In this document: piece by piece, positions 808 to 63,885 of the stretch | Numbering within the stretch: the first letter of the stretch is position 1 | How the letters are laid out: every line of letters starts with the position of its first letter | Assembly: GCA_951406725.2 (NCBI GenBank) | Contig: OX597827.1 | Coordinates: 21,018,001-21,082,000 of the forward strand | Origin: Octopus vulgaris | Taxonomy: Eukaryota | Direction of reading: 5' to 3' | Length of the DNA stretch: 64,000 bases | The notes under the pieces: generated by a model | Told to the model about the DNA's origin: nothing | Databases searched by the model: none | What the model saw: the letters and a program-made list of their open reading frames with translations, nothing else | Made by a program: the position numbers and the translations under genes

Positions 808-1644
808 TATATATATATAGATATTTATATATATATATATATATATATATATATATATATACATACATATACATACATATATATGTGCAGATATATGTAC
901 ACAGATATGCATGCATGCATATATATACACACATACATAATATATATATGCACACATAATATATACGTATATATATATATATATATATATATATATATAT
1001 ATATATATATATATATATATGTGTGTGTGTGTGTGTATGTATGTAGGTAGGTATATATGTAATGTGAGATAATATTTTCATTTTTAATAGTTTCACTATG
1101 TATACATTATATACATAGTGAAACTATTAAAACTGAAACTATTATCTCACATTACAATAGACATGTTATTGTTTCACTTTTAACGCGTAATACCGAAACA
1201 GTGTAAGAGATTGTTCCGGACTTGCACTAGGCAAGATTTGAAACATTTTTTGGCTCATGACACTCCATGGACCGTAAGTAGTGTAAGTGTAAAATTTGAA
1301 TGAAATCAGTTGGGTAGTTCTCGAGTTTTAGTGAGGCACACATACAGACACGCAGACAGACTGACACGTATTCTCAGTTTTATATATATATATATATATA
1401 TATATATATATATATATATATATATATATATATATATAAATAATCTCAGAGCGAGTTATAAACAGTAGCGGTAACACATCGTGTTGCATATTTGCCATTT
1501 GAATATGGCTAACCCATAAGGGTGGATGCTACTGTAGTTTGTAGCCCCAGGAAGATATCTACTCCAGTTGGCTATAGACACACTATCTGTGTCCTGTCAG
1601 TATTTGTGAAGGGGAGTCATCCTCCCCGTCTTCAACACATGATA

Positions 1645-1689
1645 CACACGTACCCGAGTTTCAAGGTGTTTACCTTTCATCAGCGTGTG
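1645..1689 (-). ncRNA. Type I hammerhead ribozyme (minimal)
   Basis: Reverse complement of the motif at 1984-2028. Confidence 0.85.
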
Positions 1690-1983
1690 ACAATCATGGT
1701 TGTCGACGAGAAGTCAGATCCCTTCACAAATACATATACTTTTTCCAGTGTCGATTTGACACTGATAATGAAAAAGTGAAATCAAACAATGATAAATCTC
1801 AGAGCGAGTTATAAACAGTAGCGGTAACACATCGTGTTGCATATTTGCCATTTGAATATGGCTAACCCATAAGGGTGGATGCTACTGTAGTTTGTAGCCG
1901 CAGGAAGATATCTCCTCCAGTTGGCTGGAAAAAGTATATGTATTTGTGAAGGGATCTGACTTCTCGTCGACAACCATGATTGT

Positions 1984-2028
1984 CACACGCTGATGAAAGG
2001 TAAACACCTTGAAACTCGGGTACGTGTG
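1984..2028 (+). ncRNA. Type I hammerhead ribozyme (minimal)
   Basis: CACACG-CTGATGA-AAGGT-AAAC-ACCTT-GAAA-CTCGGG-TA-CGTGTG: 6-bp stem I, 5-bp stem II, intact core, GUA site. Confidence 0.9.
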
Positions 2029-2746
2029 TATCATGTGTTGAAGACGGGGAGGATGACTCCCCTTCACAAATACTGACAGGGCACAGATAGTGTGTCTATA
2101 GCCAACTGGAGGAGATATCTTCCTGGGGCTACAAACTACAGTAGCATCCACCCTTATGGGTTAGCCATATTCAAATGGCAAATATGCAACACGATATATA
2201 TATATATATATATATATATATATATATATATATATATATATAATTGTTTTTTAATAATTGCTTGTATTCTTATTTTATATGCATAGAATAATATGCTATA
2301 TGCACGTATGTTATTATAATTATCATTTTAATAAATAAATAAGTTAACATTTTAATGTCCAAAAGTTGATGAACCAACTATTGTACTTCTCCATTTTCTT
2401 ATTTGCAATATAAATTAATGGCAAAATATATCTTTACCTTCACCCATTTAATACACTAGGTAAGTTAATTGCAATGCAATAAAAAAACACTTGTGTATTA
2501 ATAATTGGGTATTATGCCAACAGTATATTGGATAGATATTATCCCTTAGTGGGTTGGACCCACAACCCCTAACTTTCTTGGAGTTATATATATATATATA
2601 TATATATATATATAAGTTCAGCAAAATTTAGATTCAAATGAATATGGTACTTAAGTTAGATGCACCAGAATATTGTATGGTGTTATCCATATAAATCCAT
2701 GGGGTGATTATAATCAAAATAAGCAACAAGAATAACTTCGGTAATT

Positions 2747-2830
2747 TGGTACGATCGTTTCACGCTACATCATTTTATTAAATGTTATAAGCATTACAAC
2801 AGATTTAAAATGCTGAGCACTCATCAGCCA
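2747..2830 (-). ncRNA. Hammerhead motif, long stem II
   Basis: TGG-CTGATGA-GTGCT...AGCGT-GAAA-CGATCG-TA-CCA. Stem III is palindromic; stem I is only 3 bp. Confidence 0.65.
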
Positions 2831-59941: not shown

Positions 59942-60380
59942 GGATCTTTTCGGTTTGAACGGCAGTTTTTTCTAGCGGTGTCATATGAAATTGTCAACCA
60001 TAATTATGACCCTAGTATATATCTATTGCATTTCAATCTGTTTTAGGGTTAGCGTTAGTTAGGGTTAGGGTTAGGGTTAGGGGTGGAGGGAAGGGTATCT
60101 TTTTTTCTTCATAAATGTAAATAAACCCAATCTGTTTCTTAAACGAGGGATATATTCATACGGCACAGAATGTTTTTTACCTCAATACACGTCACTGATT
60201 GGTTGAAATTGCAGAAATTGAAGAAAAAAACAACAAATATCTTACAAACGATAGAATTTTCTCAATAAAGCCAAGAGAAAAAGATGTTTTATAAACACAC
60301 TCTACCAGTATACGAAGTTTAAAATTTTTTTAGTTACCTAGAAATTATGTTAAAAACTGCCTTTCAAACCGAAAAGATCC
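59942..60380. mobile_element. Merlin-like MITE with (TTAGGG)n
   Basis: Same TIR and body as 27537-27966. Confidence 0.85.
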
Positions 60381-61309
60381 TGCTTCACAACAAGACACAA
60401 TGATAGCAACATATAAAAGGACAACTTACTTCGTTACATTCTCGCCAAATTCAGTTCACATTGACATTCACTCCTGAATTCTTTCAATGGATTCCTAAAC
60501 TATGATAGAGAGTAAGTTTACTGCCTGACAGTTATTTCTGTACTTAAACATTACAATGAATACTTAAGTCTTATTGATTCATTAATCCCCTTTATAGAAC
60601 AGCTATATTAACTCACAAGCATGACCTGGTATATTGAATTAAAGACATGTTACGCTCAGTTCAGACCATTCTATTATAGTATTTGTTATTTTATTTTTAA
60701 TTCCATTCCAATGCTTATCTGAAGTTAGCTATCCTAGTTCAAATCATACCAATTAAATCCTTACCGACATAAAATACTATCTACTAATACTTACTTCATT
60801 AATTATATTATTTTCAATTACATTTTAAATTTTAAATTACAGATTACAGATTTTAGATTTTAAAATTTAAATTATCATCATTATCATTAGTTCGAATTAG
60901 TATTATGACTTTTTATTATTATTACTCTTATTCTTATCCTTATATTTATTTTTGTTTTTAAATTTCTTTAAAAGCGTCGAGTGTATCTTATGTGTGCAAG
61001 CCGGAATTGCATCAGTAAATCTATTTAGCATAGCATGATTGTAATTCATCAAAATTAAGTATGCCTCCCCAATGCATAATCCACATCTAGTGGATCAGAT
61101 TCCAAAGGGAGGGTCATGAGCCAGGATGGACCAAGATAATTTGAATTCTATACTCTTTTCCCTAAGGTCGTTTATAAACGATGCTAATGCGGTGGGTGTC
61201 CTATATTTTGGATTCTTAAAAGAACTAAGGTGGCTCCTAAAATCTAAAATCCCAAATCTGTAATTTTAAATAAAAAACACCAAAGAGTTTAAGAGGTCTT
61301 TTTGCTATT

Positions 61310-62235
61310 ATTCTCAAAAACTGTGAAGTAATAATGCTGTTGAATTGTGGAATAAGTTCAGAAATGATCTTGCTGAAGATTTCAAGTATCAAGTTCGGTT
61401 GAGTAAGCTGAGCAAGATATCGTTTTCACTGATGCTATATACAATGCGGCTTTGATTGAAATAGAAGATCAAATTATTTCGATGGGAGGTGAACCTATAG
61501 AAAATTGAGGTCTCCCACTAACTAACAGAGGAGATCTTAACAATCTATCCACTGAAATAATGAGGGAAATTTCCTATGATAAGGATGAACTGACCATGTA
61601 CATAAATGATAATCTTCCCAAGCTTTTGCGGGATCAACGTCGTACATATTCCACTATCATAGAAAGTATTAACAGTAACAGAGGAGGACTTTATTTCTTA
61701 GATGTTCCATGAGGTCCTGGGAAAACCTTTGTTATTAAACTCCTCCTGGGTGAAGTTCTTCAAGAAAATAAAATAGCTTTAGCTACTGCTACTTCTGAGA
61801 TTGCAACAACATTACTACCCGGAGGTCGGACTGCCCGTTCAACATTCAAGTTACCTTTAGATTTATCAAACAAAGAAGATCTAGTTTGTAATATATTTAA
61901 AAATTCTGCAATGGGTGAACTAATACAAAGATGTCACTTAATTGTCTGGGACGAATGTACAATGGCCCACAAAATAGCTTTTGAAGCTGGGGACAGAACA
62001 TTACGAGACATTAGAAATTGTAATTCCATGATGGGAAATGTCACAGTATTATTGTGAGGAGACTTCCGACAAACACTACCAGTTGTTCCAAGAGGAGCAA
62101 AAGTGGATGAGCTCAAAGCTTCAATAAAGTCTTCTGCATTATGGCATCATGTGAAAATGCTTCAACTTTCGACAAATATGAGATCGAGGCTTTCAGGAGA
62201 TCAATCTGATTATCTATTTGCAGAGCATCTTTTGA
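61310..62235 (+). pseudogene. Decayed Helitron PIF1 helicase
   Basis: FLDVP*GPGKT, LLPGGRTA, IVWDECTMAH and GDFRQTLPVVP, with multiple stops. Confidence 0.85.
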
Positions 62236-63463
62236 AAAAAAGATCACGCTTGGCCGAACTCCGGTCACGTGGAAGGAAAGGAGAGGAAAGGAAAGAGGGG
62301 TAGAAGGACTGAAGAATTAGGGGAAGAACGAGGAGAGGAAATCAAAGGGACATAGATGTGGGATGCCTTCAGCAGCTGGGGAGCTGACCGGAACTTGGGG
62401 CTGACCGGAAGGGACAGGAGTGACGTGCGCGCAGGCAGGGCAGGATTCGGCCTTTTCGATCGAGATAACTGAGGGAGTGAGACGCGTGAGCACGTTGTTA
62501 TGGTAGGGGAGAAGCAGCTGCTATTTCTAGTGTTCGGGTCGGGCTGCGTTGAAAAATCCATTGCCGCTGAAAGGTCTCCGTCGAGCGAAAAGAAGGTAGG
62601 TGTCCTTATTTCGAATCTCTCGCATACACCACAATAGAGAAAGGTACAAGGGAGATAAACGAGGAGGGAAAGTAGGGAGATTAAAGAAAGAGAAGGCCAA
62701 GAAATGTGAAAGATGGGGAGCGAGAAAACGAAAAGAGGAAAGAAAGAAGAAAGTACGAGGGGGGACTAAAAGAAAGAGTAAAAGAGTCGTACAGAATTTA
62801 GATACATACTTACTTACAAGGTCCTTGCCTTCGTAAACGTGGAGTAGATGAAAAAGGGACAACTGCAGAAGGGGAATATTCTTTATGTTGTATGTCTCGT
62901 TTGCCTGTTTGTTTGTTTTTCGTTGTTCGAAAAAAAGGTCGTTTCTATGTCTTTGATTTTGTTTTCGTTTCTCATTGTGTTTTACGTATTTTTTTATGTC
63001 CTGTACCCATATATGCATGTATATATACATATATATGTAGGTATGTACATATATGTATGTATATATGCACATATTTATATATTATGTATTATATATATAT
63101 ATATATATATATATATATATATATATTTAAGTAGGTGAATGAATTATCCTATGTTTATCGTCAGCATGGAAAATTCGTTTAACCGAAACCTGGGTAGCAA
63201 ATTCACGTCAGAAAACACGGTTGAAGCGACCTGTCAAGGGTAGAAACTCCGGGTTCATGTGTAGAAATTTGTGTGTTGTATATGAATAAATTAAAGAATG
63301 GAGTCAAACGAAGATGTTAACAAAATTCCTTTACTCTCGACACATGTTTCGAAGACAGCATATTTTCATTCCAAAGGAATGATTGCCTACATGGTAAACA
63401 AAGCGATAATGTAGGCAATCATCGAAATTTTTGTTTGACTTGTTGTCGAGAGAGGCTCCCTTT

Positions 63464-63545
63464 CTTTCCTGGTGAGAAGATTGCATAATACACCCTTTAT
63501 TCCTTTGGAATGAAAACATGCTGTCTTCGAAACATGTGTCGAGAG
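63464..63545 (+). ncRNA. Hammerhead motif (A6>G in this copy) in fold-back element 63290-63590
   Basis: CTTTC-CTGGTGA-GAAGA..GCAT...ATGC..TCTTC-GAAA-CATGTG-TC-GAGAG. An inverted 3' half lies at ~63335-63380. Confidence 0.75.
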
Positions 63546-63885
63546 TAAAGGAATTTTGTTAACATCTTCGTTCGACTCCATTCTTTCATTTATATATATA
63601 TATATATATATATATATATATATATATATATATATAATTAATAAAAAAACAGGAAAACATTAGAGAAAAACAACGCGAGGGAGTGGTACATGCAAAGTAT
63701 TAGCAGACGCTTGTATATGTGTGTGTATATATACGTATATATGTATATATATATATATATATGTATGTATATATGTGTATATATAAATATATATATATAT
63801 GTATGTATGTCTATATATGTGTATATATGTCTATGTATATATATATATATATATATATATATATATATATATATATATATATATA

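Follow-up and report, generated by a model that had tools for sequence, protein, structure and literature searches.

The window analysed here is a 64-kb stretch of the Octopus vulgaris genome (contig OX597827.1, 21,018,001-21,082,000; genome of 2.80 Gb in 227 contigs), which consists of microsatellite-rich repeats and carries many hammerhead ribozyme motifs. A first-pass annotation had listed 21 sites in it, described as about 20 motifs from about ten families. Judged from the sequence, all 21 are type I hammerhead motifs or decayed copies, and they represent 11 families and 18 insertions, since 1645/1984, 2747/3652 and 13125/15939 each pair up within a single insertion as its two arms. The list lacked family K (57661-57926), as well as remnants at 3952, 9755, ~12480, 19990 and 63324. 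It is highly probable that the motifs lie in about a dozen repeat families, among which B, C, E, G and J (the letters A-K and N1-N3 are our own labels) are truncated coding Penelope-like elements (PLEs), and A, D and I are non-coding tandem units likely copied in trans by PLE proteins.

Hammerhead motifs and coding Penelope-like families

The bare CTGANGA word occurs 50 times in the window, against 24.2 expected from 100 local dinucleotide shuffles. A strict type I descriptor gave 6 matches against 0.08 (100 shuffles), a relaxed type I scorer 11 against 0.15 (40 shuffles), and a scorer accepting any Watson-Crick 3-8 pair 13 matches at a score of at least 24 against 0.39 (133 shuffles). One of the 13, at 44696, is a spurious second parse of the motif at 44755, leaving 12 real matches. 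Twelve of the 21 listed sites pass the descriptor, which asks for three helices around a CUGANGA, GAAA and UH core and leaves stem I open. Damage or variation marks the remaining nine, which belong to families with hammerhead-folding members elsewhere (Table 1). Site 9816, which is without CTGANGA, was at one stage set aside as a non-hammerhead, a reading overturned by the any-pair scorer, which found a hammerhead with a swapped G3-C8 pair and the core GTGAACA.

Covariation was found in the stems of three groups. Two-sided changes occur in 8 of 13 pairs in the A group, including C3-G8 to U3-A8, and none of 500 shuffles scored as high. All 70 of 70 cells in the D group stems are paired, with two-sided changes in 4 of 14 pairs, and RNAalifold recovered stems I and II of the B group unprompted, with 9 of 24 pairs two-sided. 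Stem III is palindromic across hammerhead clusters, which is partly imposed by the descriptor. Two family A copies are predicted to cofold (-25.7 against 2 x -11.1 kcal/mol) into a double hammerhead, which minimal PLE ribozymes have been described as forming (PMC4209133). The proposal that many families here carry minimal type I hammerheads like those of Penelope elements and retrozymes is upheld by the descriptor excess over shuffled sequence and by the covariation of the A, B and D groups. Rfam search over the window returned nothing at gathering thresholds, and over two intact motifs no hammerhead family at E of 10 or below; among the best 150 of 274 E-value matches, nearly all were microsatellite-driven microRNA matches. 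As had been anticipated of ordinary annotation, Rfam misses the motifs.

Coding PLEs truncated at the 5' end account for 12 of the 21 motifs, which form their 3' ends; for 12736, the E sister, coding is assigned by kinship only. Upstream GIY-YIG endonuclease or reverse transcriptase (RT) sequence is present in B, C, E, G and J, which accordingly differ from retrozymes that have no long terminal repeats (non-LTR), among whose traits is the lack of a coding frame. The longer copies with RT plus GIY-YIG that the first-pass annotation had suggested looking for do occur. Its placing of the motifs in non-coding units of 0.3-1 kb has to be revised, in that many motifs are instead ends of longer coding elements, and its description of the elements as non-autonomous suits A, D and I but not B, C, E, G and J.

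Family E is the commonest family, with 5186 candidates genome-wide. An RT thumb, a CX4CXXC linker and a GIY-YIG domain lie upstream in 7 of 30 loci, as at L130, where a CSRRRCRTC linker is followed by a C-terminal GIY-YIG (IIYCISC...YIGQT), and E is therefore taken as Neptune-type. The label is suggested by the linker and GIY-YIG; Nematis has the same linker. Position 6 is T in 29 of 29 oriented loci, which were top matches to an A6U query, and in 8 of 16 E-group motifs of an unbiased sample. A U4C core is carried by the young Neptune N2 subfamily and the E sister. The genome holds 6136 GIY-YIG candidates, including many 781-aa open frames with RVT_1 plus GIY-YIG. In the 781-aa Neptune-type family N1 (L053 606-1685, L056 568-2007), the RT frame is preceded by another of up to 479 aa, with an overlap of ~80 nt, which suggests an ORF1 (first open reading frame) plus frameshift arrangement. 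The ribozyme in the N1 pseudo-long terminal repeat (pLTR) has a U3-A8 core, and the 3' untranslated region contains many ATTGGT and TGACGT repeats, which we take to resemble promoter boxes. Family B was considered as the pLTR of N1 (L041) and ruled out, being a separate insertion in (AT)n.

Families B, G and J are assigned to Hydra-type PLEs by their motif list. Hydra-type elements have 18,611 candidates genome-wide, with frames of up to 947 aa and a downstream ribozyme (L383), a CxCX5C linker, and CxxC and CxH in the endonuclease; RWK and DKT are found in L383, a relative of the B group. The Hydra-type protein matched Neptune RT weakly by BLASTP (E 0.074) with colinear motifs, and the L383 frame (2251-5091) gave no Pfam match. 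Hydra-type frames such as this carry long asparagine-rich inserts. Family B has 2257 candidates, with a CxCX5C-linker endonuclease in 4 translated loci, and L388 carries RT, endonuclease and B ribozyme on one strand, 92-95% identical to the window. Upstream coding sequence accompanies family G (118 candidates) in 3 of 15 loci plus the window. Family J has 1728 candidates, and L260 carries a C-terminal endonuclease piece only; its core in the window (63469) is A6G, and CTGATGA occurs in 12 of 13 other loci. Family C has 1972 candidates, with upstream GIY-YIG detected by tblastn in 2 of 13 loci. A recent repeat annotation of O. vulgaris reports recently active PLEs, and the word ribozyme does not occur in its main text (PMC13282606).

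Tandem units A, D and I and their insertion ends

Families A, D and I hold 6 of the 21 motifs. Their units of 353 bp (A, 2625 candidates), 465 bp (D, 2109) and 493 bp (I, 1509) are arranged head to tail with one hammerhead each, the tandem order of D being present in 2 of 19 loci. The longest stop-free stretch is 68-88 aa and the GC content 0.33-0.42. Copies of A and I are dispersed over many chromosomes at 95-100% identity, and family I is very young, with copies differing by 0.7% on average.

Insertion ends were compared in 40 A and 19 I loci, the top BLAST matches. Two sites ~44 nt apart take up 58 of the 62 arm ends in A, and (TA)4 follows 53 of these 58; in I, two sites ~105 nt apart take up 30 of 31, with (TA)4 after 29 of the 30. 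A similar measure puts the (TA)4 background at 1.2%. Counted downstream from the predicted cleavage site, the short end is reached after 173 nt in A and 133 nt in I. The long and short ends are paired. Among 20 head-to-head A loci, 16 combine long with short, none has two ends of one type and 4 have one end unplaced (P ~1e-5), and among 12 head-to-head I loci there are 10 long-short combinations, one long-long and one unplaced (P 0.006). The pairing thus holds in 26 of 27 placed loci, one three-armed A locus being excluded from the count. These ends lie in (TA)n tracts, which mask any target-site duplication; in the window, (TA)4 occurs within 18 nt of 18 of 27 element 3' ends placed by eye. 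Families A and I show 5' truncation, an inverted 5'-truncated copy and a one-ended tail, the pattern of endonuclease-positive (EN+) PLEs. Symmetric fixed terminal inverted repeats, typical of miniature inverted-repeat transposable elements (MITEs) or foldback elements, are not seen in A and I, where the ends are unequal and the junctions scattered. The tandem-plus-inverted structure and the (TA)n bias first noticed in the window are therefore confirmed.

Opposite arms of I differ by 0.24% and units within an arm by 0.28%, compared to 0.69% between loci; the corresponding values for A are 1.7%, 1.6% and 3.0%, so that a locus carries one haplotype in both arms. Read-through of the predicted cleavage site is seen in 45 of 62 arms of A and in 28 of 31 of I. 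More than one unit is contained in 24 A arms and 23 I arms, and in 3 A and 6 I loci this is true of both inverted arms. The 5' ends are scattered. Only 1 of 62 (A) and 1 of 31 (I) 5' ends lie within 3 nt of the predicted cleavage site. Because arms cross this site and exceed one unit, a cleaved linear monomer is ruled out as the template, which would be circular or multimeric. No arm runs 5' into coding sequence of its own in 40 A, 19 I and 19 D loci, and the A copy that stands beside an open reading frame (ORF; L187) is closed first by its own long 3' end and (TA)19. Likewise, L061 had raised A as the pLTR of Neptune N2, which was rejected, as nine other N2 copies end at +680/+705 without A sequence. 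The predicted fold of the I monomer is stabler than those of all 100 shuffles (z -5.6).

Several further observations concern these ends. The spacing of the 3' ends is family-specific, at ~25 (N2), 44 (A), 65 (G3-C8), 85 (D), 95 (B), 105 (I) and 155 (J) nt, and may point to the mobilising clade, which on tail length would tentatively be Hydra for D and I and Neptune for A. Four A arms (L006, L356, L358, L361) stop at one base in a hairpin loop, 31 nt beyond the cleavage site, where RT may have paused or microhomology may have acted. In I, 5 of 31 5' ends form a mild cluster 0-18 nt past the cleavage site (L338, L339, L342, L347, L351). Assembled contigs bridge the I unit junction in two runs, which are not on record as RNA. 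One 523-nt contig closes on itself with a 30-nt overlap, giving a 493-nt cycle; this does not count as evidence, because tandem DNA would produce it too, as would a multimer transcript. Nor do we count one run without cover at 47124-47141, across the cleavage site, a gap that three other runs bridge.

Genome-wide load and other features of the window

Motif density was estimated from 600 kb, taken as 60 pieces of 10 kb spread over 30 contigs and placed at round coordinates, with 17 shuffles. The sample contains 37 matches at a score of at least 24 against 4.2 in shuffled sequence, and 28 at a score of at least 26 against 1.2, 7 matches of the sample coming from one array; background is high below score 24 (9.65 of 49 at score 22). 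Extrapolation gives ~153,000 motifs genome-wide (bootstrap 88,000-237,000) at the lower threshold and ~125,000 (60,000-209,000) at the higher, so that the genome is estimated from 600 kb to hold more than 100,000. This corresponds to one descriptor-passing motif per 18-22 kb on average, or ~45-55 intact-like motifs per Mb. With decayed homologues of the window families included, there are 62 in 600 kb, one per 9.7 kb. The density of one motif per 3 kb put forward by the first-pass annotation holds for the window, and that of the genome is ~3-4 times lower. As the window's count was equalled in 0.9-1.8% of resamplings, the window represents a rich spot in an ordinary landscape. All sequence collected contains 197 distinct motifs, grouped into 57 clusters; a few are likely false. 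Published counts reach 120,000 in axolotl, with its genome of 28 Gb, exceed 6000 in coral and are ~5000 in mussel (PMC7229834), ~9000 in Xenopus and 4000 in coelacanth (PMC4209133), and 235 Rfam hammerhead-1 loci in giant squid (PMC6962438), a comparison that is loose because descriptors differ.

The features of the window are collected in Table 1.

Table 1. Hammerhead-bearing insertions and associated repeats in the window
Feature	Position	Strand	Details
Family A insertion	1443..2195		long 3' end on the minus arm (1443-1926), short 3' end on the plus arm (1925-2195), each in (TA)n
A hammerhead, intact	1645..1689	-	predicted cleavage after 1651
A hammerhead, intact	1984..2028	+	predicted cleavage after 2022
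Family B, head-to-head 5'-truncated Hydra-type ends	2615..3773		cores 2827-, 3655+; long stem II; long and short 3' ends ~95 nt apart
Family C relative, fold-back	3785..4100		partial hammerhead 3952-3995
Helitron-like repeat, ~2 kb	9129..11161	-	G3-C8 fold-back aboard
G3-C8 fold-back	9621..9943		hammerhead 9815-9867+, core GTGAACA; 65-nt extension on one arm, other arm truncated in core
Older A relative	12313..12604		fold-back junction inside hammerhead
E sister	12636..12797	-	core 12736, CTGAAGA with extra A, H17=G
Family D, older subfamily, head-to-head	12876..16021		hammerheads 13177-, 15944+
Helitron piece splitting the D insertion	13258-15645		at or near inversion junction; PIF1 helicase frame 14322-15461
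Family E 3' end	17265..17458	+	core 17331, CTGTAGA-A (A6U, family-wide)
Family F fold-back	19963..20237		cores 20124+ (damaged stems), 20076-; long element; 1919 candidates
Family E 3' end	22508..22662	-	CTGAAGA at 22621 out of register; true core decayed
Family D, younger subfamily	32583..32964		short inverted arm, and arm with intact hammerhead 32790-32848+
Family E 3' end	33917..34347	+	core 34227 (A6U)
Old B-group copy	39966..40079	-	core 40078, damaged stems (stem II decayed)
Family E 3' end	42753..43095	+	core 42974 (A6U)
Family G (Hydra-type) 3' end	43373..44036	+	core 43418; ribozyme 3' half deleted
Family H	44745..44928	+	core 44755, long stem II
Family I	46884..47497		intact hammerhead 47120-47226 on the minus arm, cleavage predicted after 47128; the inverted arm is short
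Family C 3' end, coding PLE	51100..51484	+	core 51255 with extra G; damaged stems
Family K fold-back	57469..58137		decayed core 57791-; stem II ~100 nt; (CT)n at both 3' ends, part of inverted repeat, where others have (TA)n
Family G 3' end	58578..59938	-	core 59921; interrupted by other repeats
Hydra-type GIY-YIG fragment	60969..61241	-	upstream of 59921, same strand; G's endonuclease piece
Family J, head-to-head Hydra-type ends	63127..63590		core 63469
Descriptor-passing cores			1683-, 1990+, 2827-, 3655+, 9823+, 13177-, 15944+, 32795+, 44755+, 47218-, 59921-, 63469+

The ~2-kb repeat at 9129-11161 has 1179 candidates, and from its termini we take it to be a likely non-autonomous Helitron. 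Its G3-C8 fold-back has one junction and the same flanks within the repeat in all 20 loci printed, so these copies are Helitron cargo. The G3-C8 core also occurs in 7 matches outside the carrier, overlapping loci counted, and the family has independent insertions at L297 and L372. The ~2-kb repeat further carries pieces resembling short interspersed nuclear elements (SINEs) and forms a tandem array with a ~2183-bp period (G000:C2:206158687-206184350). Among other features, a dispersed repeat with short TTAGGG-like runs (27537-27966, 55222-55532, 59088-59727 and 59942-60380; one copy fold-back) interrupts family G. Two related open frames, 20888-21580+ and 23395-24663-, share 73% DNA identity; one has a weak zinc-knuckle match, and they are likely retroelement ORF1 pieces. 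A mariner-type transposase fragment (Transposase_1) lies at 232-570.

Proposed mobilisation and comparison with known systems

In the Anolis PLE, a protein predicted to act as a dimer cuts and extends both strands of AT-rich DNA, and RT starts at two internal RNA sites whose distance equals the genomic tail (PMC11167929). PLE insertions favour (TA)n and show a tail at one end and a 5'-truncated copy in inverse orientation (PMC8557442). Both A and I show this pattern of two start sites, inverted copies and (TA)n, and for this reason are most likely copied by PLE proteins. We propose that an RT/GIY-YIG protein of a PLE, probably dimeric like the one predicted in Anolis, would nick both strands of a (TA)n tract, and that one cDNA would start from each of two internal sites on one RNA template, with one start site per target strand. 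The cDNAs would stop at scattered points, and head-to-head joining would follow. In A, D and I a monomer circle would most likely serve as template, generated by dimeric hammerhead cleavage and ligation, from which multi-unit arms would result, an uncleaved linear multimer being the alternative template. Cleavage is probably dispensable for the coding families, and some copies may later have spread passively by Helitrons or local duplication. In its fullest form, this reading makes A, D and I circular-RNA parasites, rolling-circle copied by a Penelope RT-endonuclease dimer from two fixed sites, one per strand, in a genome whose load is among the largest and most diverse known (100,000-200,000 motifs, at least 50 families) and includes an active natural G3-C8 core and long-stem-II forms. 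We advance it tentatively, as falling somewhat short of an even chance. If true, it would settle how animal retrozymes move.

Several points weigh against this reading. Ribozymes with A6U and U4C cores are expected to cut poorly, so the ribozyme is not clearly needed for the spread of E (A6U) and N2 (U4C). The cleavage and circle steps are themselves predicted from sequence and by analogy. The Anolis PLE did not need cleavage in vitro, and none of the reads stopped at its cleavage site (PMC11167929); of 9 Xenopus retrozyme dimers, 8 failed to cleave (preprint 10.64898/2026.07.22.740005). Covariation was judged on few sequences (5, 5 and 11), which are related and were mostly chosen by the descriptor, the loci of the two-end analysis are biased to young copies, and the two end classes of B, D and J were judged by distance to (TA)n only. 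The sole long-long I locus is the window's own. The long arrays at L339 and L336 contain repeated private variants, and some units were therefore made by local duplication after insertion. Comparison of A, D and I with nine coding 3' regions at low stringency gave one 22-nt match only and tied no partner to them. Families F (no PLE protein match in 13 loci), H, K and G3-C8 fall in neither the coding nor the non-coding class; F, H and G3-C8 account for the other three of the 21 motifs.

The nearest alternative keeps the same proteins and priming sites and differs in one step only, the template being an uncleaved multimer from a tandem array and the ribozyme having no role in mobility. It is credible, if on balance doubtful. 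It agrees with the dispensable cleavage of the Anolis PLE and with 5' ends not piled at the cleavage site, and a homogeneous source array would also give one haplotype per locus. Nevertheless, canonical cores and compensated stems persist in A, D and I among diverged relatives, whereas coding Neptune-type elements tolerate core changes, and the I monomer fold beats every shuffle. Moreover, retrozymes of mussel, coral and axolotl accumulate as circles (PMC7229834). By this analogy, and because A, D and I keep canonical cores, we modestly prefer the circle over the multimer. It is also conceivable, but unlikely, that A, D and I are terminal repeats or deletion remnants of unsampled autonomous PLE families, expanded in place by unequal exchange, akin to the satellite route proposed by Li, Clavereau & Pollet (preprint 10.64898/2026.07.22.740005). 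Five other window families did prove to be ends of coding PLEs, few of the 57 clusters have been traced to parents, and the variants recurring in L339 and L336 represent local duplication. However, none of the A, I or D loci has an arm running into coding sequence of its own, and arms longer than one unit continue into the unit itself. In 3 A and 6 I loci this length is exceeded by both inverted arms. The L187 copy closes before the neighbouring ORF, and the copies are dispersed over many chromosomes at high identity.

That the fold-backs are DNA transposons of the MITE/foldback kind or passive Helitron cargo, with the hammerheads as passengers, describes one site well, the G3-C8 fold-back in the ~2-kb repeat, and a Helitron piece also lies inside the D insertion. 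As a general account it is refuted by variable junctions and is very improbable: the unequal fixed 3' ends, scattered junctions and many single-armed copies of A and I speak for retrotransposition, and the G3-C8 family has also inserted independently. Chance matches in AT-rich repetitive DNA would fit the merely twofold enrichment of bare CTGANGA and the real background of relaxed scores below 24, but this explanation is refuted by the strict-descriptor excess in the window (6 against 0.08), by that in the 600-kb sample at scores of at least 26, by stem covariation and by the position of the motifs in PLE 3' ends.

The kinds of element found here, namely PLE hammerheads, mollusc Neptune and Hydra elements and non-LTR retrozymes, are already described, as are (TA)n targeting and tails. 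What appears new from the sequence analysis is the scale, the core variants and the anatomical support for Penelope-driven retrozyme mobilisation. The A6U, U4C and G3-C8 cores may already be in print in Lunse et al. 2017, among PLE hammerhead variants. Such a hammerhead load in octopus was not found in the literature, although the supplements of PMC8557442 and PMC13282606 may list these families. The fixed A6U and U4C cores of successful coding families bear on the need for PLE ribozymes, and the young family I together with intact Neptune- and Hydra-type frames in one genome makes mobilisation testable by the published PLE assay.

Compared to Neptune-type PLEs, E and the 781-aa family share the RT, the CX4CXXC linker, the C-terminal GIY-YIG, a palindromic stem III of 2-4 nt and (TA)n, whereas E (A6U), and the E sister and young N2 (U4C), differ by family-wide core changes. 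U3-A8 cores are known from Schistosoma PLEs (PMC4209133). The Hydra clade, reported from Mollusca (Craig et al. 2021, PMC8557442), has motifs, a canonical core, (TA)n and a one-ended tail in common with B, G, J and L383. Its tails are given as 30-40 bp, compared to ~95 nt in B and ~155 nt in J, and the octopus elements further differ in a stem II domain of ~55-60 nt, asparagine-rich ORF inserts and very high abundance.

Families A, D and I resemble the animal non-LTR retrozymes of Cervera & de la Pena 2020 (PMC7229834), which are likewise non-coding, low-GC tandem units with one type I hammerhead each, found alongside PLEs. Unit sizes are given there as 150-450 bp, slightly below those of D and I, and as 51-972 bp in the preprint 10.64898/2026.07.22.740005. 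The A, D and I ribozymes, known here from DNA, are PLE-like with a palindromic stem III, unlike those described for non-LTR retrozymes; a mussel retrozyme (~5000 copies) is without most loop 1-loop 2 contacts (PMC7229834). Retrozymes have already been proposed as non-autonomous PLE sequences from 35 genomes, with no mollusc among the classes named in the available text (preprint 10.64898/2026.07.22.740005). The PLE dependence of published retrozymes was argued from co-occurrence and pLTR homology, whereas A and I display the two-start-site tail, the long/short pairing and the inversion in (TA)n. In the available text of the retrozyme literature, including PMC6765202 and PMC8969392, we found neither PLE tails nor long/short pairing. 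Mobilisation was left open in PMC7229834 and the 2026 preprint, as far as their available text goes, and A and I give direct anatomical support for the PLE route.

The closest mechanistic parallel is Poseidon PAc of Anolis (Frangieh et al. 2024, PMC11167929), in which, as in A and I, there are two start sites, both strands are cut and the targets are AT-rich. An engineered C3G/G8C change partly rescues cleavage in PAc, and the G3-C8 pair occurs naturally in octopus. PAc was studied in vitro as an autonomous element, and no strand difference in start site was seen, whereas the pairing of long and short ends in octopus suggests one site per strand.

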